Origin: an uncultured archaeon
Lineage (GTDB): Archaea > Iainarchaeota > Iainarchaeia > Iainarchaeales > 0-14-0-20-30-16
Reading direction: 5' to 3'
Length of the DNA: 32,000 nt
Assembly: GCA_964480435.1 (NCBI GenBank)
Contig: CAYZSS010000001.1
Location: forward strand, 4,047-36,046
In this document: in pieces, positions 8,379-32,000 of the stretch
Numbering within the stretch: position 1 is the first letter of the stretch
Layout of the letters: each line of letters starts with the position of its first letter
The notes under the pieces: generated by a model
Databases searched by the model: none
Told to the model about the DNA's origin: nothing
What the model saw: only the letters and a program-made list of their open reading frames with translations
Position numbers and translations under genes: made by a program

Positions 8379-10181
8379 TTAATATTTACCTAGTGTAAAT
8401 AAGTTTTTTACATCATTTGCTTTATCCGCTCTTTCAGGATTCTTATCCGGTCTAAATTTTATAAGTCTTGGAAATCTTAGAGCCAAACCGCCAATTTCTC
8501 TTTTGGCGCAAGTATGTATTGGACTCTTAGTAATCTCGTCATATAAAACTTCAACAACATATTTGGGGGAAACCCAAAAATCCGGTTCTAATTCAGAGTC
8601 ATAATCCATTGGCTTAGTTTTTTTACTTATTTTTTCAAGCACATCTTTAAATTCTTCAAGCCCTGCATCTGTTAATCCAGAACCTACTTTTGCAATTGTT
8701 TGATACTTTTCTTCATCATCATTGTAGCAACCCACCAATAGGGCCCCAATACCAAATTTTGATCTTTGGCCTTTTCCTAAAAAATAACCAAGAATAACTA
8801 AATCTAAACTATCAATAGTTTTTGAATTATAGGACTTCTTATATTTTACCCAAGCAAACTTTCGTGCCCCAGCAGTATAATTTGCTGCAGGATCTTTTAA
8901 CATAATTCCTTCATTTCCATCAGCAGTTACTAAATCAAAATAAGCCCTTATTTCTTTAGGGTCATCAGAAAATATGAACTTTGGAAATGCAAGGTTCTCA
9001 TTTTCAACCATTGTTTCTTTTAAAATCTTTCTTCTATCTACAAATGACAAATCTATTAAACTTTTTTTCAAATACATAATATCAAAAACAATCATCCTCA
9101 AAGGAATTTCTTTTGATACTTCTGAGATATCATATTTTCTTTTTCTTTTTATTGTTACTTGAAATGGATAATATTTTTTTTCTTTTTTATTATATCCTAT
9201 TGCCTCACATTCAAAAATAATTGGATATTTTTTCACATTCTCTTTTATTGTTTTTACCACGTCAGGAAAAATATCACTCATATCCTCTAAATTTCTTGTA
9301 AAAAGTTTTACATTTTCCCCATCATAATGGCATTGTAACCTGAACCCGTCGTATTTTGGTTCAACAACACATTTACCTAATTTTTCAACAATTTTTTCTA
9401 TTGTTGGAAGTCTTTCTGCAAGAGCAGGAAGAACAGGAACAAAAGGAGTTACATCAATTTCATCTAAACCTTTTACCCCATTTATAAAAAGTTTTTTTGC
9501 TATACTTCCCAAATCAGGATATATATTGTATTTTGATTCTATCCTGGTTTTTATATCATAACGAAAATACCTGTCTGCCTCAGCCCCGTATTTATCTACA
9601 AACACATGGTATTCTCTTTTATTTCCTGTTTTATAAGCCTCTAAAAAATACAGAGACAGGGCATCAATAATTGTAGAATTTGATAAACCAATGCGCATAT
9701 TTTTTTCTGCAATCCGCACAATATATTTTGCTTCAATTGGAGAAGAATTGTTGATTAAATTAATCAGATAATTCATTTTTTCATCTATTGCACCCTTCCC
9801 TTCTGCAACAGCCATTTTTTCAAATAAATTGTATACCTCAAACAAATCCTTTTTTTTTGAAAATAAGTTTCTTTGGTATTTTGAACCCATTACTTTTTCA
9901 GCAGTTAAACCTAAATCACCCAACTTTTTGTACTCGTCTTCAACCTGCTCTTTCTCTTTTCCAGTTGATTTGGATAGAGCAACAAGAATAGTTTTTTCTG
10001 CAATACCAAGATCAAGAGATTTATATTTTGCTCCAAATTGTCCAAGAAGAAGATAAATTATAGTGTCTATTTCATTACTATCCGTTTTTTTGAAAATGTT
10101 TTCAATTTGGCACATCATTTTTAATCTTGATGGTTCTTGCTCTAAATTAGACAAATCGTTCGCAAACTCAGAAAATAACAT
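8379..10181 (-). CDS. lig: ATP-dependent DNA ligase
   Basis: 600 aa. Adenylation motif I VEPKYDGFRLQCH, then EGIMLK, WVKYK and LRFPRLIKFRPDK motifs in canonical order. Confidence 0.92.
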   Translation of the reverse strand: MLFSEFANDLSNLEQEPSRLKMMCQIENIFKKTDSNEIDTIIYLLLGQFGAKYKSLDLGIAEKTILVALSKSTGKEKEQVEDEYKKLGDLGLTAEKVMGSKYQRNLFSKKKDLFEVYNLFEKMAVAEGKGAIDEKMNYLINLINNSSPIEAKYIVRIAEKNMRIGLSNSTIIDALSLYFLEAYKTGNKREYHVFVDKYGAEADRYFRYDIKTRIESKYNIYPDLGSIAKKLFINGVKGLDEIDVTPFVPVLPALAERLPTIEKIVEKLGKCVVEPKYDGFRLQCHYDGENVKLFTRNLEDMSDIFPDVVKTIKENVKKYPIIFECEAIGYNKKEKKYYPFQVTIKRKRKYDISEVSKEIPLRMIVFDIMYLKKSLIDLSFVDRRKILKETMVENENLAFPKFIFSDDPKEIRAYFDLVTADGNEGIMLKDPAANYTAGARKFAWVKYKKSYNSKTIDSLDLVILGYFLGKGQRSKFGIGALLVGCYNDDEEKYQTIAKVGSGLTDAGLEEFKDVLEKISKKTKPMDYDSELEPDFWVSPKYVVEVLYDEITKSPIHTCAKREIGGLALRFPRLIKFRPDKNPERADKANDVKNLFTLGKY

Positions 10182-10276: not shown

Positions 10277-10750
10277 TCAAGGCATTTCAAAATTTAACTC
10301 ATCAAAGGCAACTTCCTCACAATCACCCATTACTTTTGCCTCGGTCAACCAGTTAGATAATATAGTTGAAAAACCCCCTGCCTCGATTACTGAACTGCAT
10401 TGTGGAGCAACCCCGCTCAACTTATCCCAAGAACAAAAAAAATCTAAATCGATTCTCATTTTAGTCCAGCTTCCAGGAACAGACGCCTTCATTACTGCTA
10501 CATCTTTTGCAAAATAATATTCATATATTACTTCACCCAAAGTAGCATAACAATAAGTAGCTTGTGGATTTTCGCTCTGCTCAACTTCTAAACTATTATT
10601 TAATTCCAGCGGAGTTTGGTTTTCAAGACCAGAAGAATCTCCAAAAAGAGAATTGCTTGGATCAGTAGTATCTTTGTTTGAAACACACCCAGAAAAAACA
10701 AATAACAAAATTACAAACAAACCTAAAACTAATGAATTACTTTTATTCAT
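10277..10750 (-). CDS. Putative secreted lipoprotein, unknown function
   Basis: Signal peptide with lipobox-like LLFVFSGC. Four further Cys in the mature part. ATG at 10750 is preceded by GGTGAT. Confidence 0.55.
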   Translation of the reverse strand: MNKSNSLVLGLFVILLFVFSGCVSNKDTTDPSNSLFGDSSGLENQTPLELNNSLEVEQSENPQATYCYATLGEVIYEYYFAKDVAVMKASVPGSWTKMRIDLDFFCSWDKLSGVAPQCSSVIEAGGFSTILSNWLTEAKVMGDCEEVAFDELNFEMP

Positions 10751-10791
10751 GAAATCACCAACCAATTAAAAATACCTAAAAATACTAATTA

Positions 10792-11411: not shown

Positions 11412-12287
11412 TTATATATTGATTGTTTTACTTTGCTCAACCAAAGCAACTTTTTGTCCTTTCTGCCTAAGCCAAACAGTTACTCTAAAGACACCTTTTG
11501 AACGTAAATGTTTGTAAAGCGAGATTGTTTTTACTATTTTTTCTTTGGAATTTAATATTGTTTTTACAGGCAAATTATCCAATTCAATTCTACGGTTATT
11601 ATTTTCTATTACAATATCACAAACAACATTATGCAAAGGTTCTGCAATTATATTTTGAACATTAAAAGTTAGCTCTTCAATTTGGGCTACTTCAGGATAA
11701 CCAACATGTCTTGTTTTTATATTCTTTATATCAAAGTCAACAAGTTGAGAATAATCAAATTCAGGTTTTTGTAATAATTCGATTACTGCGTCTTTTTTTG
11801 CCAGGTCTAGCCTTGCTTCTTTTAGTTTCTGTTCAAGAACTATTAATTTGTCATTCAAATGAGCTGTTTCAGTATTTAAACCATATCCTAATTGGTGTCT
11901 TAGTTCTCTTAAAGTATCATCTTTTTGTAATAACAAGTGCTCTAAATCTTTTACCGCCAGTTGCTTTTCAGCAAGTTCAATTTCTATTTGCTTTTTTTTT
12001 GCACCCATGTGCATCATTTTTTTGTTTTTATCGCTTAACCTACGTTCAGTTTTGTGTATCAATTTTTTATGCTTAGAAATTTCTTTTTTGGTTGCTGCGT
12101 TAGAGTCCATATATTGTTGATTCTTTTCTGCAAGTCTTACCTTCAATTTATTCTGTTCTTTATTAGTTAAATCAGAATCTTGCTGTTCAAAAGTATTTAT
12201 TTTTGAAACTTCAGTCAACAATTTAGACTTTGCTTTTTGTATTTTTTCTAAGTTTTCTCTAGATTTTTCATCCCGCGGATTAATCAT
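11412..12287 (-). CDS. Coiled-coil protein with C-terminal beta-rich domain, unknown function
   Basis: About 190 aa of K/E/Q/L heptad-like sequence, then a non-repetitive roughly 100 aa C-terminus. Start chosen at ATG 12287, after GTGAT plus 4 nt; the track start at 12296 is a GTG inside that SD. Confidence 0.5.
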   Translation of the reverse strand: MINPRDEKSRENLEKIQKAKSKLLTEVSKINTFEQQDSDLTNKEQNKLKVRLAEKNQQYMDSNAATKKEISKHKKLIHKTERRLSDKNKKMMHMGAKKKQIEIELAEKQLAVKDLEHLLLQKDDTLRELRHQLGYGLNTETAHLNDKLIVLEQKLKEARLDLAKKDAVIELLQKPEFDYSQLVDFDIKNIKTRHVGYPEVAQIEELTFNVQNIIAEPLHNVVCDIVIENNNRRIELDNLPVKTILNSKEKIVKTISLYKHLRSKGVFRVTVWLRQKGQKVALVEQSKTINI

Positions 12288-12344
12288 AAACATCACTAAA
12301 GGTTATAAAATATATATAGTCTCTAAAATATATAAAGTTATGTA

Positions 12345-13712
12345 TTAAATATTAAGATTTTGATCTTGAATATAGCACAGACCCTTGCTAAGGGCTATTT
12401 CAGCATTTCGTAGTTCCCCACCCAAGTAAAAGGCATGAGCTAGCTGAGATACAGAGAAGTCAAGTACTAATTGATTATATACCTCTTTTGCAGACAAACC
12501 AGAATAGATTTTTATAGGCTGACCACTATTATCAAGATATTTTGCATAAATCTTGTCTTTTACTTCTATAAAAAAATAACCCCGCGGATCAGGGGTACAA
12601 TCTAATTCTAATCCTTTTTTTATTATTTCTTCCGCTGAATTTAAGTCATTATAATAAATGTGCGCAGAACTGCTTATTGTTGTTAAATTTCCAACGTTTA
12701 AGCCAACCTCTTTGGCAGCCCTTTCCAATATTTTTTGTAATCCAAAAGTATTCAAAAGATAACCTCCAAAAAGATCGTGGGATCTAAAATAAGCAGTTAA
12801 ATATAAAGAGTCATTTTGAACAAGAAATTGTGCAGAGGTAAGACAAGGAGGCAAAGAAGATTTTGAATCTTTTAATGGGTCCCAAAGAGTTAAAAAAATT
12901 CTTCTGCTCTCTTTAGATTTTTTTAATTCATTTATCGCCCACTCAATTTGATCAAATCCAAAATGATTACAAAGCCTTTGGCCATAAGTATATTCAACAG
13001 ATTTTATTTGTTTTCCTGTCCCAATCTGGGCCTCATAATCCTGAATTTGTTTTTTTGTTATTTTTAAATAAGCAGGAATATTTCTTTCTTCACTTTCTGT
13101 TGTAACTATCATTAAATTAACTATTTCTAAAGAGCCAATACCATACTGTGTTTTTTTCTCTACACCGTATTCTTTAATTAATTTTAATGCTTTTAGCCAA
13201 GCACTAGAAATATTTTTTTCATGAATTAAAAAGCCCGCATTTTCACTTGGCCTTTTTGCATTACAAGTCTCTTTTACTTTTATTTCCTTTGCATCCCCAT
13301 ACGATTCTTTTTTTTCAAGAGAATTAATTTTATTTTGAATTTCGTTTAAATCAGTAACACCAATTAGATCTATAATTTCCACATTAGAAATAATTTTATC
13401 CAACTCTCCAGAGGAAATATCATTTGCAATTAAATCATAATTTTTAGAAAAAATATTTTTTATTAGTTCCCCCGAACCAGACAAATCCACCCCACATAAA
13501 ATAAGACTTCTTATGTTGGTGTTTCCAGCTAAATTCCTCAAAATATATTTTACACCTTCCAAAGAATAGCAAGTACCAATTGTGTTGCAGTTAAGATTAG
13601 AGAACAAATCTTTTTTAGACCAAAGAGTAACCACCCCTACATTATGGACCGGATTTTTTACCAACAGTAAATCTTTAAAGTAAAGAGGCCAGTTTTCAAG
13701 AAGTGATAGCAT
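12345..13712 (-). CDS. thyA: Thymidylate synthase (ThyA-type core) flanked by MtrA-N-like and DUF4346-like modules
   Basis: Core motifs: SRRIFLTLWDP, LPPCLTSAQF (nucleophile Cys), YFRSHDLFGGYLLN, SSAHIYYND. N-terminus: WPLYF...NVGVVTLWS...NTNIRSLILCG...IIDLIGVTD. C-terminus: DPRGYFFIEV...AHAFYLGGELRNAEIAL...YIQDQ. Confidence 0.8.
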   Translation of the reverse strand: MLSLLENWPLYFKDLLLVKNPVHNVGVVTLWSKKDLFSNLNCNTIGTCYSLEGVKYILRNLAGNTNIRSLILCGVDLSGSGELIKNIFSKNYDLIANDISSGELDKIISNVEIIDLIGVTDLNEIQNKINSLEKKESYGDAKEIKVKETCNAKRPSENAGFLIHEKNISSAWLKALKLIKEYGVEKKTQYGIGSLEIVNLMIVTTESEERNIPAYLKITKKQIQDYEAQIGTGKQIKSVEYTYGQRLCNHFGFDQIEWAINELKKSKESRRIFLTLWDPLKDSKSSLPPCLTSAQFLVQNDSLYLTAYFRSHDLFGGYLLNTFGLQKILERAAKEVGLNVGNLTTISSSAHIYYNDLNSAEEIIKKGLELDCTPDPRGYFFIEVKDKIYAKYLDNSGQPIKIYSGLSAKEVYNQLVLDFSVSQLAHAFYLGGELRNAEIALSKGLCYIQDQNLNI

Positions 13713-14676: not shown

Positions 14677-15783
14677 CTAATATGTGGGTCTAATTTTTCT
14701 AATATATAATAACAATCCAATTAAACACAGAGGAAGTAAAACAACATATAAAAATATTATTACTGGTGGAGTCAAAGGTAAAGATGAAAATAGAGACACC
14801 CCCCCACCCATAGGAATATTTCTTATGGTTCCAAGTATTGCAAGCATAACAGGAATAACAATTCCAACAAAAATATATATTACCCCAATGAAATTCATTT
14901 TTCCTGCAAATGATTCCAAAGTCAGCCTTATTTCGAAAGAAACATCTTTTGCAGTAGTATTCAGAATATCGGAAAGATTACCACCGGATTTTAAAGCTCT
15001 TAAAATGTGATTTATTGTATTTCTTAAAGAAAATGATTTTGTTCTGTATGCTAAATTTTTCAAAGCATCTTTAGTATCTGCTCCTTGTTCAACTTCATTT
15101 ATTACTCTTGCCATCTCTTCTGATAAATAACCATATTCTCCAACGGCAATAGTTTGCAAAACCCTATACAACCCTATCCCCGCTCTTAGTTCAGTTGCCA
15201 TATGTCTTAATGCAAAAGGAAGTTCGGCATCTATTTTTTTTCCCCTATTGTTAGCAACCATTACAGGGTACTTCAGGACAATAACTCCAGAAAAAAATAA
15301 AACTGCAAAAAATACAGCTATTAAGAGATACATCGATATATTAAACCAAAAAAACAAAACGCCTGCAGAAGCAGTAATAAATATTGTTGCCAAAACTGTA
15401 ATTACAGATGATATCGCCAAGTATTGTGATGTGCTGTAATTTATATTAGCGCTGTTTAACTCTTGGCTTACTTCATTACGCCCAGGAAAAACAGCTAAAA
15501 CCTTTTTTGCAAAAAAAGAAAAGAATGATGAAAATAAATTATAAATTTTTCCTACCAATCTTACATTATTGTTATAATCGGCAGCAAGATCTCTTGGTTT
15601 TTGAACTTCTATTTGGGCTCTTTTTCCTTCAGAAATTATAGACCTTAATTCTTGCAATCTTAATGAGTCTATTTCCGAATTTAATCCTTTTTCTTCATAT
15701 TTGTGCTTGATATTTGCGACAATAGACTCCACTTGATCCAAGTTGACCTTCTGTTGCATCTTGTCGTTTAAATCAAAACTCAT
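14677..15783 (-). CDS. Type IV filament platform protein, single T2SSF domain (TadB-like)
   Basis: 368 aa. T2SSF-like segment LPFALRHMATELRAGIGLYRVLQTI...VEQGADTKDALKNLA flanked by TM helices. Adjacent to the ATPase. Confidence 0.75.
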   Translation of the reverse strand: MSFDLNDKMQQKVNLDQVESIVANIKHKYEEKGLNSEIDSLRLQELRSIISEGKRAQIEVQKPRDLAADYNNNVRLVGKIYNLFSSFFSFFAKKVLAVFPGRNEVSQELNSANINYSTSQYLAISSVITVLATIFITASAGVLFFWFNISMYLLIAVFFAVLFFSGVIVLKYPVMVANNRGKKIDAELPFALRHMATELRAGIGLYRVLQTIAVGEYGYLSEEMARVINEVEQGADTKDALKNLAYRTKSFSLRNTINHILRALKSGGNLSDILNTTAKDVSFEIRLTLESFAGKMNFIGVIYIFVGIVIPVMLAILGTIRNIPMGGGVSLFSSLPLTPPVIIFLYVVLLPLCLIGLLLYIRKIRPTY

Positions 15784-18597: not shown

Positions 18598-19560
18598 TTA
18601 TTTATTCAGATAAAAGTTAGCAAGCATTGCTTCTATTTGAATTCTTTCTGTTGCACCTTGTGTTATTCTAAAATTAGTTTCTCCAATTACCTTTATTAAT
18701 TCTATTTTGTGCTCTAGTTTTATTTTTGAGTCATCACACTTTATTAATTCAGTATATACTTGCCCAACAATATCTTCGCCAGACATGCCATAATCAAACA
18801 TAAGTTTGTAAAGCAGTTCTCTTGCTTTTTTAAAGTCACCAGAGTAAGACGCAAAAATTAATTCGCCTATCTCTTCTGGTCTCGCTCTTGCGCTTACTTT
18901 AAACACATCTTCGCTTTTTATTTTTGTTTCAAGTGATGCGGTTGATTGTAAAATATTTATTGCCTTTCTTAGATCACCTTGGGAAACATAAAACAAAGAG
19001 TCTAAAGAACCCTTTTCAAAGTCTAGTTCTTCTATTTTTCCAATTTCTTCAAGTTTACTTATTATTGTATCCTTCTCTAAAGGCTTAAATCTAAATACAA
19101 CACATCTGCTTTGTATTGGCTCAATAATTCTACTTGAATAATTACATGACAAAATAAAACGACTAGTTTTTACATATCTTTCCATTGTTCTTCTCAAAGC
19201 TTGTTGAGCATCAGCAGTAAGAGAGTCAGCTTCATCCAAAAAAATAAGTTTATAGTCTGAGTTAAAAGGTAGAGTTCTTGCAAACTCTTTTATTGTATTT
19301 CTTACTACATCAATACCTCTATCATCAGATGCATTCAATTCTAAAAAATTTCTATCGTAATGTTCTCCAAAAAGATCTTTTGCCAAAGCAATAGCTGAAC
19401 TTGTTTTCCCAATTCCAGCAGAACCAGTAAACAGCATATTTGGGACCCGGTTTAGCTTGACATAGCTTCTTAACCTGTCTATTATAGATACGTGCCCAAC
19501 CACATCAGCCAAAGAGTCAGGCCTATATTTTTCGATCCATGGCAAGTTTTCTTTATCCAT
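18598..19560 (-). CDS. rfcS: Replication factor C small subunit
   Basis: LPWIEKYRP, Walker A GSAGIGKTS, DEADSLT, SRC motif QSRCVVFRF. ATG 19560 (MDKENLPW) is preferred over track TTG 19578. Confidence 0.92.
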   Translation of the reverse strand: MDKENLPWIEKYRPDSLADVVGHVSIIDRLRSYVKLNRVPNMLFTGSAGIGKTSSAIALAKDLFGEHYDRNFLELNASDDRGIDVVRNTIKEFARTLPFNSDYKLIFLDEADSLTADAQQALRRTMERYVKTSRFILSCNYSSRIIEPIQSRCVVFRFKPLEKDTIISKLEEIGKIEELDFEKGSLDSLFYVSQGDLRKAINILQSTASLETKIKSEDVFKVSARARPEEIGELIFASYSGDFKKARELLYKLMFDYGMSGEDIVGQVYTELIKCDDSKIKLEHKIELIKVIGETNFRITQGATERIQIEAMLANFYLNK

Positions 19561-19690
19561 AATATGATAAAAACACAATATTATTAAAAAGAAAATGCTC
19601 TTTGTTTTATATTACCAAAAAAGTGCCTAAAGGTATTTTAGGATTTCAAAATTAGGGATCAAATTTTAAAATAAAAAAAGAGGGAAAAAT

Positions 19691-20101
19691 ATGTATTTAT
19701 ATGCTATATTCGGAATAATTGTTGCTTATGTTGTGTCAGCAGTACTAAGTATTACTAATATTACTAGTAAAATGGGCAGTGTTTTGTACTATACTATGCC
19801 TTTGATTGGTTTTCTATTGATATATGTTATATTTATATTTATAGAGAAAGCAGTTGACTTTAATTTCAAAGAGCCCTACATCGGTTTAATCCTAATTGTT
19901 TTTTTATTTTTAGGATTCTACCTAGCATTCTTAATATATTATGGGCAAAGCGCAATATTTTCAAGCGTTACCTTTGCACAAGTATTTAGTCAAATTAAGA
20001 TAAACTGGATCAAATATATGACAGCAACCCCCTATATTTATTTCATTATAGGATCTTTCTTTGGTTGGGCAGCATATGCAATAGATAAAAACAAAAATTA
20101 A
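19691..20101 (+). CDS. Hypothetical polytopic membrane protein
   Basis: 136 aa with about four hydrophobic helices. GAGGG lies upstream. No recognisable motif. Confidence 0.55.
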   Translation: MYLYAIFGIIVAYVVSAVLSITNITSKMGSVLYYTMPLIGFLLIYVIFIFIEKAVDFNFKEPYIGLILIVFLFLGFYLAFLIYYGQSAIFSSVTFAQVFSQIKINWIKYMTATPYIYFIIGSFFGWAAYAIDKNKN

Positions 20102-20121
20102 ATAAAAAAGGCAGTGATAAA

Positions 20122-22296
20122 ATGGAATATGCAAGAGTAGATGAAATTATTATTAAAGTAAAAGAAGCCGACCCAAGTTTATTAGGCAGAAACATTATCA
20201 CCTTAGATGGTTCAAGCAAAGAAAGATTAAGATTATCTGCAGGGGATTTTGTTTCTATAAAAGGACAGAAAGAAACCGTTGCACAAGTATGGCCAACTCG
20301 TTCCATTGATGAACCCGAGGCATTTATTAGAATGGATAGCCTGATAAGACAAAATGCAAAAGTAGGCATTGGAGATACTGTACTAATTAAAAAAGCAGTT
20401 GTAAAAGAAGGACACAAAATAATTCTAGCACCAACACAAATTATAAAATTACCTCCCAATAATAACTTTGCAAGAATTGCAAAAAAACAATACTTAGGAC
20501 GAGCTTTAAGCGCAGGGGACAGAATACATTTGTCTTTATTTGGAAACCCAATGCAATATTTTGTTACAAAAACTAACCCCCCTGGGTTTGTATCAGTAAG
20601 TGATTCTACTATTTTTGAACTTCTTGAAACACCCATTACTCTGGAAAATGCCGAAATTTCAAAAATAGGATATAACAGAATAGGAGGTTTAGGAAAACAA
20701 TTAAATAAAGTAAGAGAAATGATTGAACTTCCGTTAAAGCACCCAGAAATATTTGAAAAAATGGGGGTTAGCCCGCCAAAAGGAATTTTATTTTTTGGAC
20801 CACCTGGAACAGGAAAAACTTTATTAGCCAGGGCAATTGCTAATGAAACAAATGCAAATTTTACTATAATAAACGGACCAGAAATTATGAGTAAATATGT
20901 TGGTGGTGCTGAAGAAAAACTAAGAACAATTTTTAAAGAAGCAGAGGAAAATGCCCCCGCAATTATTTTTATTGATGAGATAGATGCAATTGCAACAAAT
21001 AGAGACAATTCAGAAAGTGAAACAGGCCGAAGAGTTGTTGGACAATTACTTAGTTTAATGGATGGATTGCAAGCAAGAGGAGATATAATTGTTATTGCTG
21101 CAACAAATAGAGCTAACTCTATAGATCCCGCATTAAGAAGACCAGGAAGGTTTGATAGAGAACTACATATTAATGCACCAGACAAAGATGGTAGAAGAGA
21201 AATATTTGATATCCATACAGCTGGGGTTCCTCTTGCAAAGGATGTTAATTTAGATACTTTGGCAAAAAAAACTCACGGATTTGTTGGAGCAGATATTGCT
21301 GCCCTAATTAAAGAATCTGCAATGCAAGCTATTAGGCGAATACTTCCAAAAATCGATATGGAAGAAGAAACAATACCAAAAGAAATTTTAGACAGCTTAG
21401 AAATAATCATGCAAGATTGTGATAATGCTCTGCTTGAAGTACACCCTTCCGCATTAAGAGAAGTAATGATTGAAGTGCCAAATGTATCTTGGGAAGATAT
21501 TGGTGGCTTAGAAGAAGTCAAAGAACAATTAAAAAAAGGTGTTGAATGGCCTTTACAACATTCAGAATCATTCAGCAAAATGGGTATTAGCCCAATAAAA
21601 GGGATATTATTATATGGCCCTCCTGGAACGGGAAAAACAATGCTAGCAAAAGCAGTTGCAAGAAAAAGCGAAGCAAATTTTATTAGCGTAAGAGGTCCAG
21701 AATTATTTAGTAAATGGGTTGGAGATAGTGAAAAAGCACTAAGAGAAATATTTACAAAAGCAAGACAAACAAGCCCTTGTGTGATATTTTTTGATGAAAT
21801 AGATGCCTTAGCCCCAAGAAGAGACCAAATAGCGGATGGTGGGGTAAGTGCAAGACTAGTTAACCAACTTCTTGTTGAGTTAGATGGTCTGTCCGAGCTT
21901 AAAGGAGTTGTACTAATTGCTGCAACAAATAGACCGGATATTATTGATCCTGCTTTATTAAGACCAGGAAGATTTGATAATATTATTTTTGTTCCACCAC
22001 CTGATTTAGAATCAAGAAGAGAAATAATAAAAAAGGTTTCAAAAGATATGCCTTTATCAAAAGAAGCTGAAGAATTTTTAGATACTCTTGCAGAAAAAAT
22101 AGACACCTATTCAGGGGCAGACATAAATTCATTACTAAGAGAATCCGCGCTAATTTCTTTGGACAGATCAAAGATGAAAGACACCAAGGTCGGAGTAGAA
22201 GACATTAAAGCAGGGCTAAAAAAAATACGGCCTAGTCTTACAAAAGAAGTAGTAAATGAATATAAAAAATTTGAGAAAAATATAAATCTCAATTAA
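20122..22296 (+). CDS. cdc48: CDC48/VCP-like AAA+ ATPase (N domain plus D1 plus D2)
   Basis: 724 aa. Two AAA modules with GPPGTGKTLLARAIA / IIFIDEIDA and GPPGTGKTMLAKAVA / VIFFDEIDA. Each is followed by ATNRxxxIDPALxRPGRFD. Confidence 0.95.
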   Translation: MEYARVDEIIIKVKEADPSLLGRNIITLDGSSKERLRLSAGDFVSIKGQKETVAQVWPTRSIDEPEAFIRMDSLIRQNAKVGIGDTVLIKKAVVKEGHKIILAPTQIIKLPPNNNFARIAKKQYLGRALSAGDRIHLSLFGNPMQYFVTKTNPPGFVSVSDSTIFELLETPITLENAEISKIGYNRIGGLGKQLNKVREMIELPLKHPEIFEKMGVSPPKGILFFGPPGTGKTLLARAIANETNANFTIINGPEIMSKYVGGAEEKLRTIFKEAEENAPAIIFIDEIDAIATNRDNSESETGRRVVGQLLSLMDGLQARGDIIVIAATNRANSIDPALRRPGRFDRELHINAPDKDGRREIFDIHTAGVPLAKDVNLDTLAKKTHGFVGADIAALIKESAMQAIRRILPKIDMEEETIPKEILDSLEIIMQDCDNALLEVHPSALREVMIEVPNVSWEDIGGLEEVKEQLKKGVEWPLQHSESFSKMGISPIKGILLYGPPGTGKTMLAKAVARKSEANFISVRGPELFSKWVGDSEKALREIFTKARQTSPCVIFFDEIDALAPRRDQIADGGVSARLVNQLLVELDGLSELKGVVLIAATNRPDIIDPALLRPGRFDNIIFVPPPDLESRREIIKKVSKDMPLSKEAEEFLDTLAEKIDTYSGADINSLLRESALISLDRSKMKDTKVGVEDIKAGLKKIRPSLTKEVVNEYKKFEKNINLN

Positions 22297-27697: not shown

Positions 27698-28225
27698 TTA
27701 TTTTTGCCCTTCTTTTTCAGAAATTTGAGAGTCAACATCTGTTATAACATAATCACAAACATCTGTGCCGTCAGGTGGCGGAGAAGTAGCCAGATTTGAA
27801 TTAATTATTTTTTTAAAAGTAAACGCAGAATAATAGGAAAAATCAAGATCTCCTTTTTTGTAATTATTATTTATATCCAAAACAACACTTACTGTTTTCA
27901 CAGGGTCTATTGCTAATGTTATGTTGTTTATTTTTACATCACATAAAAAAGAAGAATCATTAAAGTCATCACAAAAACTACTTTGTTTTGATTCAAAATC
28001 TATTTTAAAAGCATTAAAATCAAAATCGCAGGATTCATAAGATTCAAAGGATTCCGCAATATACCTCGTAACAATATTATTCAAATACAAATATTGCATC
28101 TCATTTTTTGATATAAATTCAGGATAGTAATTAGGGGTTTGCGCGTTATGGGCCACATTAAATAAAAGAAGAGAAATTCCCACCAATACAATAATTACAC
28201 TAAAAAAACCACTTTTACTTTTCAT
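27698..28225 (-). CDS. Pilin-like protein (weak class-III-signal), 175 aa
   Basis: MKSKSG|FFSVIIVLVGISLLLF, with no acidic residue near +5. Four Cys. Last gene of a four-gene run that is overlapping or closely spaced. Track start 28234 is a GTG; ATG 28225 is preferred. Confidence 0.5.
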   Translation of the reverse strand: MKSKSGFFSVIIVLVGISLLLFNVAHNAQTPNYYPEFISKNEMQYLYLNNIVTRYIAESFESYESCDFDFNAFKIDFESKQSSFCDDFNDSSFLCDVKINNITLAIDPVKTVSVVLDINNNYKKGDLDFSYYSAFTFKKIINSNLATSPPPDGTDVCDYVITDVDSQISEKEGQK

Positions 28226-28481
28226 AATAACCACTATAACAAAATTCCTTAATTACTGCACCGGAATTTATTGTTTCTTTAATTGTATTATAACACAAAT
28301 AACTATTGGAGTCTACACCCTTACTAGGTTTATTTAAATAATATGACACAGTTTTATCAGATGAAAAATAAGATAAATCAAAATTTGGTTTTTTTAATTC
28401 ATTAACAGGTACAGAAAAAATTGTTATTAGCAGACCAGCAATAAAAATTAAATCAAATGTAAAAATAAAACCCTTATTCAT
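28215..28481 (-). CDS. Class-III-signal pilin-like protein, 88 aa
   Basis: MNKG|FIFTFDLIFIAGLLITIFSV. Two Cys. 4-nt overlap with the upstream gene. Confidence 0.6.
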   Translation of the reverse strand: MNKGFIFTFDLIFIAGLLITIFSVPVNELKKPNFDLSYFSSDKTVSYYLNKPSKGVDSNSYLCYNTIKETINSGAVIKEFCYSGYYEK

Positions 28482-28975
28482 TTGTATCCAGCCCCAATTA
28501 TTATTTCTTTTTCTTCTAAATCACAACTAGCTAAACCCATAACACAGTCATAGTAATTAGCTTTTTTTACTGGCCCTGAGTGAGCAATAATTTTTAATTT
28601 CTTTTCTGCCCCTTTTACGACTAAGTCAGATTCAAAGGTTATTCCTGAAATAGATACTGCTATATTTTCAGGCAGCCCTAGTTTTGATTTGTTAAATTTA
28701 GTCAAGTCAATACAGTAGGCAATATACTTAATAAAATTTCCATCTTCGTTTACAAGTTCGCAAGAGAAGTTTTCATTTAGTGCAATTTTATTTTCTATTA
28801 AATCAATATAACTTGTTAGTTCAATATTTGATTTATTTATATTATACTGATGTAAAGAATACGCAAAACCCTGATATAAAATCCCAAGAAGAAAGACAAA
28901 AAGAATTGTTGCAAAAACCAGATCAAGGGAGAATATTATCCCTTTTTGATTCTTCTTTCCGTTCTTAACCTGCAT
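28478..28975 (-). CDS. Class-III-signal pilin-like protein, 165 aa
   Basis: MQVKNGKKNQKG|IIFSLDLVFATILFVFLLGIL. Four Cys. ATG 28975 follows GTGAT plus 4 nt; the track start 28984 is a GTG inside that SD. Confidence 0.6.
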   Translation of the reverse strand: MQVKNGKKNQKGIIFSLDLVFATILFVFLLGILYQGFAYSLHQYNINKSNIELTSYIDLIENKIALNENFSCELVNEDGNFIKYIAYCIDLTKFNKSKLGLPENIAVSISGITFESDLVVKGAEKKLKIIAHSGPVKKANYYDCVMGLASCDLEEKEIIIGAGYK

Positions 28976-28980
28976 AAACA

Positions 28981-29325
28981 TCACTTGTTAAAATATACTG
29001 CTGCATTACAAAAATAATTGTCTAATTCACCCACTGCAACTAATTTACTTTGCTTATTTTCCAAGTCCGACACAAAATAATTTCCATCCTGATAGTAAAA
29101 ACTTTTCTCCTCGCACTCTAAATTATATTTTAAATCATAGCCTGCGGGAAGATCCAAAGCAGCAAACAGGGGGCGCATATTGCTGGCTGAACCTGACAAA
29201 TCCGAATCCAACCTTAAAATATCTGTTTTCTCAAGGATAGTATCTCCAAAAACAAAGAACACAGAGAAAAGGATGGCGAATATAATTATTGCCAATAAAA
29301 AATCCAGTGATATCTGCCCTTTCAT
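28981..29325 (-). CDS. Class-III-signal pilin-like protein, 114 aa
   Basis: MKG|QISLDFLLAIIIFAILFSVFFVF, with Q at +1 and D at +5. Two Cys. First gene of the block. Confidence 0.7.
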   Translation of the reverse strand: MKGQISLDFLLAIIIFAILFSVFFVFGDTILEKTDILRLDSDLSGSASNMRPLFAALDLPAGYDLKYNLECEEKSFYYQDGNYFVSDLENKQSKLVAVGELDNYFCNAAVYFNK

Positions 29326-29395
29326 ATTATCGCCTTAATTACATATAAATAACAGGGCTTTAATTAAAAAACTTTGTTATTTTCTTATTTATAAC
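29326..29395. promoter_or_regulatory. Divergent promoter region (pilin-like operon and archaeosortase-like gene)
   Basis: 70-bp AT-rich spacer with TATA-like ACATATAAATAA and TTTAATTAAAAAA. No SD precedes 29396, so that transcript may be leaderless. Confidence 0.3.
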
Positions 29396-29875
29396 ATGGA
29401 CAAAAGAATAATCCTATTTATTTTTATTGGTTTATTAGTAAACCTTACTTTCTTTTTTGTAATTGACTCGATTTATACCCCGTTCCCCCAATTAGTAGGA
29501 AAAAGCATATCTTTAATTACCAATTTTAATTTTGATTATAACCCAAACCCCGCTTATTACACCCCTGATTACGATTTAGAAATAAACAACCTTTGCACTG
29601 GTTTTGCAACTTTCTTCTTATTAGCAAGCATTATAATAATACAAAAATCATTAAGACTTACAAAAAATAGTTGGAAAAACATAGCCATTTTTTTGCCTTT
29701 GTCATTTATACTGCTTTATTTAATAAATATCCTGCGATTATTAGTAATTTTATATTTTGGAAATTCGCAAACCATCACAGAAACCTTGCATATTATTGGT
29801 TGGATGATGATGGGTGTAACAGTATTTTTGCTGTGGATGTTTTTTGAAAAAAAGAATAAAAATATCTCTTGTTAG
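29396..29875 (+). CDS. Miniature exosortase/archaeosortase-family protein (putative)
   Basis: 159 aa polytopic protein. Family-like order and spacing of candidate catalytic residues: NNLCTGFATFFLL (Cys), 47 aa later LINILRLLVILY (Arg), 18 aa later TLHIIGWMMMG (His). Confidence 0.6.
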   Translation: MDKRIILFIFIGLLVNLTFFFVIDSIYTPFPQLVGKSISLITNFNFDYNPNPAYYTPDYDLEINNLCTGFATFFLLASIIIIQKSLRLTKNSWKNIAIFLPLSFILLYLINILRLLVILYFGNSQTITETLHIIGWMMMGVTVFLLWMFFEKKNKNISC

Positions 29876-29925
29876 GGAGATATTATTTTATGACCCAACA
29901 ATAATCCCCGTTGCCAGGTGATTAT

Positions 29926-31527
29926 TTACTTGGCCATAATATATTTTGCTATTTCTGAATATGCCGGTCTTGTGACTATTATTCCAATTAGAACACCAGT
30001 AATAATAGTTAAAGCAAACCCTGTTAGTTTACCAAAACCAAAACCAAATATTAAGATTGGTATCATTGCTGCGATTGTTGTTGCCGCTGCCGCAAAAATC
30101 ATAAAGAATGCATTTTTAATTTTTGCAAGTAAACTATGTTCTTCTTTTTCTTCTTGGTTCTTTGACAGTTCATCTGTGATAATTACCACATCATCAACAC
30201 CAGTTCCAATTGCTGCAATTAATCCAACTAAAGCTGCTAAATCCAGTCTCCAACCTATTAAAGAAGCACAAACTATTATTAAAAATACTTCAGAAAGTGT
30301 AGAAAACATTATTGCTGCAATTAATGAAGGATGCTTATACCTTATGTAAACTGCAAGACCAACAATAAATACTGCTATCAGCCCAATAATAAGAATAGTG
30401 GTTAGGAAACCCTCCCCCAATAAAGGAGATATTGTTTCTTTTGAAATATTAGCTACTCCAACAGGCAAAGAACCTGAAGAAAGCAATATTTGAAGATTAT
30501 CTGATTTTGCTATTGCATCATCCTTTGTTTGTGCACTCCCTCTAATCAATAACTGATAATATACTTTAAAATTTGTAGAATCAATATTTGGTGCGCTTAA
30601 ATTAGTAATATCTTCATTTACCCAAATTATTGATTTTAATCCTGTTGCAGTCCATATCCATGGTTCTTTATTATTTTTTGCAACTTCTACTACAGGTAAA
30701 TTTGCATCTGTAAATTTAGACAGATCATAAACACTTTTTGGAACAATTATTTTTTCTATACCATTATTCACATCTAACTTAAGAGTTGCTAATAAATTTG
30801 CATCAATATCATCAACGAGCATATATTCTATTGAGGCATTTTCCATTATTTCAGAAAAATCAATCATTGATGCTTGAGTATTTGCAGGATCCACAGGAAC
30901 AATTTGTTCCTCATCGTATAATTCCTGAGTAATAATAAAAATTGCATTTAGTGGTCTATCAATAAAAAAGAATGTTTTTGGGCAATCATACCCTGAGCCT
31001 GTACCTGATGGAACACAAGTATGGAATACTTTTTCAGCAAAAATCTTAGCTGATTTTGTTTTTAAAGTAAAAGGCATTGTCCAACTATAGTATCCTTGGC
31101 CAGTATCTGCTATGCTGTAACCTTGTGATGGATTTTTATCCACGGATAAAATATCTTCACCAGTAAATAAAATTTGAGAATCCATTATATTTTCAAAACG
31201 GCCTTGTTTGTAAAGCACTGACTCAATAGCATCAATTTCCTTCTGGTCCGTTGTTCCAACTTGTGCAACAACATATTTATTGCCCCAAGCATTTACTGTT
31301 GTATCCTTAAGCCCTGACCAATCTAATCTTTGACTTATTGTGTTTGTAACAAGAGTCATTGTATTTGGGTCATTAACTGCTTTATCTAGCTCAATTGTAA
31401 ATTGTGTTCCCCCGCTAAAATCCAGTCCATATTTTAGCCCATTAAAAGCAAGGACAATTACACCCAAAATAAGTAAAGCTAACAATATTGCTACTCTTGG
31501 TTTTTTTAATAAATCACTAAACGCCAT
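29926..31527 (-). CDS. secD: Protein-export membrane protein SecD
   Basis: N-terminal TM, a large roughly 330-aa extracytoplasmic domain, then six C-terminal TMs with IGTGVDDVVIITDEL. ATG 31527 follows AAGGAGTGAT; the track GTG 31536 lies inside that SD. Confidence 0.85.
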   Translation of the reverse strand: MAFSDLLKKPRVAILLALLILGVIVLAFNGLKYGLDFSGGTQFTIELDKAVNDPNTMTLVTNTISQRLDWSGLKDTTVNAWGNKYVVAQVGTTDQKEIDAIESVLYKQGRFENIMDSQILFTGEDILSVDKNPSQGYSIADTGQGYYSWTMPFTLKTKSAKIFAEKVFHTCVPSGTGSGYDCPKTFFFIDRPLNAIFIITQELYDEEQIVPVDPANTQASMIDFSEIMENASIEYMLVDDIDANLLATLKLDVNNGIEKIIVPKSVYDLSKFTDANLPVVEVAKNNKEPWIWTATGLKSIIWVNEDITNLSAPNIDSTNFKVYYQLLIRGSAQTKDDAIAKSDNLQILLSSGSLPVGVANISKETISPLLGEGFLTTILIIGLIAVFIVGLAVYIRYKHPSLIAAIMFSTLSEVFLIIVCASLIGWRLDLAALVGLIAAIGTGVDDVVIITDELSKNQEEKEEHSLLAKIKNAFFMIFAAAATTIAAMIPILIFGFGFGKLTGFALTIITGVLIGIIVTRPAYSEIAKYIMAK

Positions 31528-31604
31528 AAATATCACTCCTTATATTTGGGGCCTGTTGCAATTTTGATTTTTATCATAAATTGGCAACTTGCCATAAATA
31601 TCCC

Positions 31605-32000
31605 TCATTTTTTATTAACATGCTCAACATACCAAACCAGTATTGGAGCATTCATAAGCCACGTTGAACTCACATCAACAATTAATCCTGATACTAACAC
31701 AACTGACATTTGGTATAGTACGGTTATATTAGTAAAATATGAAATAATTAACATTACAAGTAAGGCTGCAACTGTTGTTGCTGTCATTGTAATTCCTGTC
31801 TTTAATGCTGATCGTGTTTTTTCTTTTACACTACCGCCTTTTTGCTTCATTAGTTTTGCAGTAAGCATAACATCTGTGTCAATAGAATATCCAACTAACA
31901 TTAACAAAGCTGGAATTGTTACTAAAGACAAAGGTATACCAAAAATTGCCATACCCAGCAATCCACCAAAAACATCAAATATTCCTGATGCAATTATTGC
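31605..32000 (-). CDS. secF: Protein-export membrane protein SecF (N-terminus outside window)
   Basis: The frame stays open to the window edge (AIIASGIFDVFGGLLGMAIFGIPLSLVTIPALLMLVGYSIDTDVMLTAKL...). It shows the SecDF C-terminal TM bundle pattern and lies directly upstream of secD. Confidence 0.8.
   Translation of the reverse strand, partial: AIIASGIFDVFGGLLGMAIFGIPLSLVTIPALLMLVGYSIDTDVMLTAKLMKQKGGSVKEKTRSALKTGITMTATTVAALLVMLIISYFTNITVLYQMSVVLVSGLIVDVSSTWLMNAPILVWYVEHVNKK

Follow-up and report, generated by a model that had tools for sequence, protein, structure and literature searches.

A predicted four-helix exosortase/archaeosortase-family protein between a pilin-like operon and SecDF in Iainarchaeota

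Does a small membrane protein that is encoded next to a pilin-like operon in an archaeal genome belong to the exosortase/archaeosortase family and, if so, does it serve the filament or some other process of the cell envelope? We addressed this question for a gene, here called art, in a DNA stretch of 32,000 nucleotides (hereafter, the window) and in 19 related loci (L001 to L019). The window has 31% G+C and carries archaeal housekeeping genes (FttA/aCPSF1-like, proteasome subunit, DNA ligase, RFC, CDC48 and TrkAH); the closest genome locus is that of a Candidatus Iainarchaeum sp. MAG (phylum Iainarchaeota, kingdom Nanobdellati, DPANN), and more distant art homologues are annotated as Candidatus Diapherotrites. 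An earlier note, made from the same DNA, had claimed here an open reading frame with candidate catalytic Cys, Arg and His residues in the order typical of the family; the reading frame is present as claimed, and the order and spacing of the three residues are exact on direct reading of the sequence (Table 1). Two further genes of the window drew our attention. One encodes a protein of 162 amino acid residues without a family match, whose N-terminus (MNKSNSLVLGLFVILLFVFSGC) resembles a lipobox signal peptide, making it a candidate N-terminally lipidated archaeal lipoprotein; the other encodes a protein of 455 amino acid residues with an unusual architecture, in which an MtrA-like region at the N-terminus is combined with a partial thymidylate-synthase domain and, at the C-terminus, a PterinBD-DUF4346 domain.

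Table 1. Coordinates of art, of its neighbours and of other features discussed in the text (positions are those of the window).
Feature	Coordinates	Strand	Description
Candidate lipoprotein	10277-10765	-	162 aa
MtrA-like/PterinBD-DUF4346 protein	12345-13712	-	455 aa
T2SSF platform protein	14677-15783		C-terminal tail ...PLTPPVIIFLYVVLLPLCLIGLLLYIRKIRPTY
Pilin-like operon	27698..29325	-	Four genes (114, 168, 88 and 178 aa), divergent from art
Divergent intergenic region	29326..29395		70 nt, two A/T-rich TATA-like boxes
Conserved intergenic core	~29340-29388		~47 nt, ATATATAAATAACAAATGAGTTATTAAAAAGCTTTATTRTTTTCTATC in relatives
Conserved motif	29364-29385		TTAAAAARCTTTRTTRTTTTCT
art (archaeosortase-family gene)	29396..29875	+	ATG start, 159 aa, four predicted TM helices
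Cys67	29594-29596		Codon TGC, in NNLCTGF
Arg114	29735-29737		Codon CGA, in NILRLL, 47 residues after Cys67
His132	29789-29791		Codon CAT, in LHIIGW, 18 residues after Arg114
Antisense ORF within SecD	29918-30349	+	143 aa
SecD	29926..31536	-	Convergent with art, stop codons 50 nt apart; NCBIfam SecD models (E=9e-95), Pfam Sec_GG and SecD_SecF_C
SecF	31605..32000	-	Runs past the window end, 347 aa in L001; PF02355

The art protein matches two general profiles of the family, PF09721 (Exosortase_EpsH; E=1.1e-8, 35.2 bits against a gathering score of 25.7) and TIGR04178 (exo_archaeo; E=1.1e-9, 38.4 bits against a cut-off of 23). A search of this kind had been set beforehand as a refutation test for the assignment, and both scores lie above the curated thresholds. 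TIGR04178 is also matched by 22 of the 22 relatives, which public pipelines name 'exosortase/archaeosortase family protein'. The profiles of the named subfamilies gave a different picture, with scores below their cut-offs for exosortase K (XrtK, TIGR04287; 36.7 bits against 55), ArtE (TIGR04124; 23.7 against 95, relatives reaching at most 34.9), ArtH (NF041736; 19.7 against 200) and XrtA (25 against 208). The window protein has no match at E<=10 to ArtA (TIGR04125, cut-off 75; relatives at most 26.6 bits), nor did it match the pacearchaeosortase (NF033505, cut-off 80; best relative 37.7) and ArtD (TIGR04175, cut-off 125; best relative 49.1) profiles. The seven relatives that were tested individually behaved alike, passing the generic signature and reaching no subfamily cut-off.

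A second refutation test concerned the conservation of the three candidate catalytic residues. In alignments of 14 and of 22 homologues (19-62% identity), Cys67, Arg114 and His132 do not vary, whether in orthologues or in distant homologues, and the same holds for Gly69, Asn111 and Trp136; the CxG, NxxR and HxxxW motifs are kept without exception across the relatives. Orthologues with the same length and start form a close group (60-62% identity) and a further group (41%), and their dN/dS values of 0.046-0.087 indicate purifying selection; for the six contigs carrying an identical protein, selection analysis is uninformative, since they represent the same strain, with zero nucleotide differences in art. 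When the window is compared with L011, no protein of the neighbourhood has diverged as far as that of art (41% identity, with the catalytic residues still invariant); identities are 46-65% for the pilin-like proteins and 70-79% for the prepilin peptidase, RFC, SecD and SecF. Given that curated cut-offs are passed, that Cys67, Arg114 and His132 are invariant and that dN/dS is 0.05-0.09, we consider that the 159-residue protein is, judging from its sequence, a genuine exosortase/archaeosortase-family member belonging to no named subfamily.

The clade formed by art and its relatives is unnamed and has few members. An exhaustive HMMER search of 1.84 billion representatives gave only 15 clusters at E<=1e-3, so the clade appears sparsely sampled, and a metagenome scan returned only contigs of up to 4.5 kb. 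Three large matches of the profile search (P0006, P0011 and P0012) were set aside as N/Q/Y-rich repeat proteins with a compositional match to the loop region, being neither relatives nor substrates.

The AF2 model of the protein, obtained with a 14-sequence alignment (pLDDT 89.9, pTM 0.81), contains helices at residues 3-23, 30-42, 70-85, 93-121 and 125-157, four of which are long, and a small hairpin at residues 53-62. In this model, Cys67, Arg114 and His132 lie at, or close to, helix termini (helices 70-85, 93-121 and 125-157). No solved structure with a meaningful resemblance to the protein was found, whether the PDB was searched by sequence or, with Foldseek, by the AF2 model. Lysine and arginine residues cluster at residues 3-4, 84-94 (a loop) and 152-155, and the loops 25-65 and 122-131 are acidic or neutral; following the positive-inside rule, loop 25-65 and the three candidate catalytic residues are predicted to face outward. 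The protein would then be composed of one N-terminal TM helix, an outward loop of ~40 residues and the three-helix core common to exosortases and archaeosortases, with Cys67, Arg114 and His132 towards the outer ends of TM2, TM3 and TM4.

The protein had been described as miniature and as far shorter than ArtA and EpsH. The comparison with these two enzymes is correct: the match to PF09721 is limited to positions 154-251 of the 254-position model, and the protein therefore corresponds to the catalytic core plus one extra N-terminal helix. The term miniature is less apt, as the size is ordinary for several archaeosortase subfamilies. Profile lengths are 156 for ArtB (TIGR04144), 150 for ArtD, 153 for ArtE, 167 for pacearchaeosortase, 163 for XrtK, 158 for XrtH, 150 for XrtM and 202 for ArtH, and the window protein aligns near end to end with such profiles, over residues 3-152 with ArtE and 36-145 with XrtK.

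Having established what the protein resembles, we looked at the genes that accompany it. SecD and SecF follow art in the window, L008, L009, L010, L012, L014, L017, L018 and L019, and also in L011 and L016, there with one inserted ORF. Convergent SecD and SecF genes adjoin art in four subclades whose other flank differs, and SecDF is the most widely conserved neighbour of the art clade. Since art and SecD are convergent and not co-transcribed, this persistence could reflect inherited gene order.

The ORFs inserted at the convergent art/SecD junction are single and unannotated (L011 10465-11706 (-), 413 aa; L016 8598-9911 (+), 435-437 aa); the two lineages are unrelated and no similarity was noted between the ORFs, which suggests a recurrent insertion site. 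The antisense ORF within SecD listed in Table 1, with an equivalent in L011 (11775-12272), is most likely a spurious shadow ORF of the hydrophobic SecD coding sequence. In L001, ~3.8-5 kb past the window end and just downstream of SecF, a gene at 11824-13005 (-) encodes a protein of 393 amino acid residues with a class III (pilin-type) signal peptide and leucine-rich repeats, possibly a pilin-like adhesin.

The other flank of art divides the clade. In the window clade (window, L001-L008 and L011), art has the pilin-like operon on one side and convergent SecD, then SecF, on the other. Three other subclades, namely P0010 (L018/L019), P0017 (L017, a 522-kb contig) and a group of proteins with 171-173 amino acid residues (L009, L010, L014 and L016), have art proteins only 19-26% identical to that of the window and share the order DUF92, S49 peptidase (opposite strand), CarS, art, convergent SecD and SecF, NOG1. 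CarS is CDP-archaeol synthase (PF01864) and its gene lies directly upstream of art, on the same strand, in L009, L010, L014, L015 (partial), L016, L017 and L018/L019. Of the six distinct arrangements in which the junction can be measured, five have a gap of 4-5 nt or an overlap of 4 nt (L017) between the two genes, which indicates an operon; in L010 the gap is ~290 nt. CarS is absent from all window-clade loci, so that for this clade a link to lipid synthesis is drawn from its sister clades. A fifth clade, with proteins of 151-155 amino acid residues, has neither SecDF nor CarS nor the pilin-like operon nearby.

These arrangements recall what has been described for the archaeosortase ArtA, which cleaves a C-terminal tripartite signal after Sec transport, the new C-terminus becoming lipid-anchored (PMC6098224); according to the same review, its conserved active-site residues were confirmed by mutagenesis (PMC6098224). 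The artA-pssA-pssD synteny in Methanosarcina was the starting point of the work of Abdul-Halim et al. 2020 (PMC7157517), in which PssA and PssD, acting downstream of CDP-archaeol, were found to be required for ArtA-dependent cleavage and lipidation, and the amine of ethanolamine was proposed to resolve a thioacyl enzyme intermediate (PMC7157517). The operon formed by CarS and art, and the position of art next to SecDF, fit this model of cleavage and lipidation.

We consider it probable that art encodes a functional minimal archaeosortase and is a vertically inherited housekeeping gene of membrane biogenesis, not a pilus component, with its substrates encoded elsewhere. The homology with Haloferax ArtA suggests a mechanism in three steps as the most likely one, with topology, chemistry, lipid acceptor and substrate class as we infer them here. 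A surface protein exported by Sec would be held in the membrane by its C-terminal TM helix. Cys67, helped by Arg114 and His132, would attack, close to the outer face of the membrane, the peptide bond at a signature motif, releasing the tail formed by the TM helix and the basic residues and forming a thioacyl intermediate. An amine-bearing archaeal lipid derived from CDP-archaeol would then resolve the intermediate, leaving the protein with a C-terminal lipid anchor. The gene neighbourhood would accordingly be one of membrane biogenesis, represented by SecDF and, ancestrally, by CarS, an SppA-like S49 peptidase and DUF92.

Such a mechanism requires substrates, and the earlier note had seen none in the window, placing them elsewhere or supposing them to be non-canonical. 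Every ORF of the window and of L001 to L019 was scanned, at strict and then at relaxed thresholds, for a hydrophobic helix near the C-terminus with a short tail behind it, and the ends of unannotated neighbours and of a reprolysin/fn3 protein of 978 amino acid residues were inspected by eye. No C-terminal tail of the motif-TM-basic type is present in the 32-kb window, in the L001 extension or in ~190 kb of related loci, in agreement with both statements. The scan of the window yielded only polytopic membrane proteins (TrkH, M50 peptidase, T2SSF and prepilin peptidase), and that of the related loci gave further polytopic proteins, spurious ORFs and a single cytoplasmic protein with a tail anchor, encoded next to SepF. 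The only promising tail, PLTPPVIIFLYVVLLPLCLIGLLLYIRKIRPTY, belongs to the T2SSF platform protein (Table 1) and was rejected. Beside SepF in L018, a gene at 19502-20230 (-) encodes a protein of 242 amino acid residues with no signal peptide and with a C-terminal TM helix at its very end, a candidate tail-anchored division protein and no archaeosortase substrate. Substrates are normally scattered through the genome and only ~40 kb of this genome were read, so the negative result carries little weight.

The lack of tripartite-tail proteins in any locus read might nevertheless be taken to mean that the enzyme is not a protein-sorting transpeptidase and that its Cys/Arg/His site acts on a lipid or another non-protein substrate in membrane-lipid metabolism; the position of art immediately downstream of CarS, or overlapping it, in the sister clades, and the presence in the same cluster of DUF92, an integral membrane family, point in the same direction. 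We find this reading unlikely, because every family member that has been characterised or computationally paired is tied to C-terminal protein sorting signals (PMC6098224) and because the lipid anchoring of proteins already accounts for an archaeosortase linked to lipid genes (PMC7157517); moreover, the absence of substrates from less than 10% of a genome proves little when they are normally dispersed.

A further reading, marked as speculative in the earlier note, connects art with the filament: the enzyme would serve the pilin-like operon, processing or anchoring a pilin-like protein or tethering the filament, under co-regulation through a shared divergent promoter. A complete set of type IV pilus-like genes is indeed present in the window (T2SSE, two genes for T2SSF, a prepilin peptidase and class III pilins), and the four pilin-like proteins have class-III-signal-like N-termini (KGQISLDFLLAIIIF, QKGIIFSLDLVF, NKGFIFTFDLIF and KSGFFSVIIVLVG) and match no family of Pfam or NCBIfam. 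The divergent arrangement with art is retained in all readable loci of the window clade, namely the window, L006, L007, L008 and L011. An apparent loss of two pilin-like genes (pl114 and pl168) in L012 was discarded, as a masked run of 100 N at 9535-9634 mimics a deletion and makes this locus uninformative.

The intergenic region itself also speaks for a shared control. Its two TATA-like boxes point in opposite directions, ATATAAATAA facing the pilin-like operon and TTAATTAAAAAAC lying ~26-32 nt before the art ATG, a distance that suggests a leaderless art transcript if, as we suppose from the sequence, the box acts as a promoter. Each of the nine matching loci has a single copy of the conserved motif of Table 1, in every case immediately upstream of art. 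In a six-locus alignment, the ~47-nt core is almost identical in L006, L007, L008, L011 and L012, and it is near-invariant despite saturated synonymous sites in art. An inverted repeat, AATAAC-N6-GTTATT, is found inside this element in the relatives and is degenerate in the window. Co-regulation of art and the pilin-like operon in the window clade is possible, although a conserved intergenic element is expected for any promoter pair.

The distribution and the geometry of the pilin-like proteins speak against a functional link. The operon is not beside art in L009, L010, L013, L014 and L016-L019, which represent four other subclades, three of them with CarS upstream and SecDF downstream; the sole adjacency that the window clade has in common with the others is art-SecDF, and the pilin-like operon is a neighbour specific to one clade. 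The four pilin-like proteins end in neither a TM helix nor a basic tail, and their sole hydrophobic helix is N-terminal and of opposite orientation (N-in before prepilin cleavage), which misfits the known substrate geometry (PMC6098224). The proposed link therefore finds no support beyond local synteny in the window's own clade, and we regard service to the filament as rather improbable, more so than a non-protein substrate. Two further readings, in which the ORF is hydrophobic by chance in DNA rich in A and T or is what remains of a longer, degenerating archaeosortase gene, could draw on the G+C content of the window, at which spurious long ORFs often arise (several are present), and on a Pfam match limited to the C-terminal 40% of the model; both are refuted by same-length, same-start orthologues at 41-62% identity, by the low dN/dS with invariant catalytic residues, by the end-to-end alignment of subfamily profiles of 150-170 positions and by the confident AF2 model.

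Returning to the archaeosortase with dispersed substrates that we favour, a broader scenario can be drawn around it. In Iainarchaeota, a compact ancestral cluster (DUF92, SppA-like S49 peptidase, CarS co-transcribed with the minimal archaeosortase, and SecD-SecF) would couple Sec export, C-terminal cleavage and lipidation with a CDP-archaeol-derived lipid, both physically and genetically; in the window lineage the CarS side would have been replaced by the pilin-like operon, with a shared, strongly conserved bidirectional promoter region, and anchoring and filament would perhaps be co-regulated. We put this forward tentatively, as a possibility that we would not yet bet on. If true, it would extend the ArtA/PssA/PssD paradigm beyond Euryarchaeota and provide a minimal enzyme with four TM helices for studies of mechanism and structure.

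Archaeosortase biology rests almost wholly on one enzyme, Haloferax ArtA, and archaeosortases have been described as present in a subset of Euryarchaeota (PMC6098224); our literature search found no papers on DPANN archaeosortases. The co-transcription with CarS in sister lineages and the SecDF adjacency would provide independent genomic support for the model in which proteins are cleaved and lipid-anchored after Sec transport, and the predicted four-TM enzyme would be a small target for structure determination in a family for which we found no solved structure. For the window, the outcome is mainly a sound annotation, which corrects the idea that art belongs with the pilus.

Compared with known systems, the window protein shares with the core of the exosortase/archaeosortase superfamily the order Cys...Arg...His, with the residues at the ends of three successive TM helices, whereas EpsH/XrtA and ArtA have ~8 TM helices against its predicted four. 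The small named subfamilies (XrtK, ArtE, ArtD, ArtB, pacearchaeosortase and ArtH) have the same size and four-TM architecture, the window protein falling below every cut-off where it matches, and DPANN-specific archaeosortases are already catalogued, as pacearchaeosortase in NCBIfam. ArtA of Haloferax volcanii belongs to the same catalytic-core family and is about twice as long as the window protein; its substrates are PGF-CTERM proteins, whereas no PGF-CTERM-like substrate was seen for the window protein in the loci read. The lipid gene linked to art is CarS, which is missing from the window clade, in contrast to PssA/PssD for ArtA; nevertheless, the linkage of ArtA to phospholipid synthesis (artA-pssA-pssD, Methanosarcina) is paralleled by the CarS-art operon of the sister clades.
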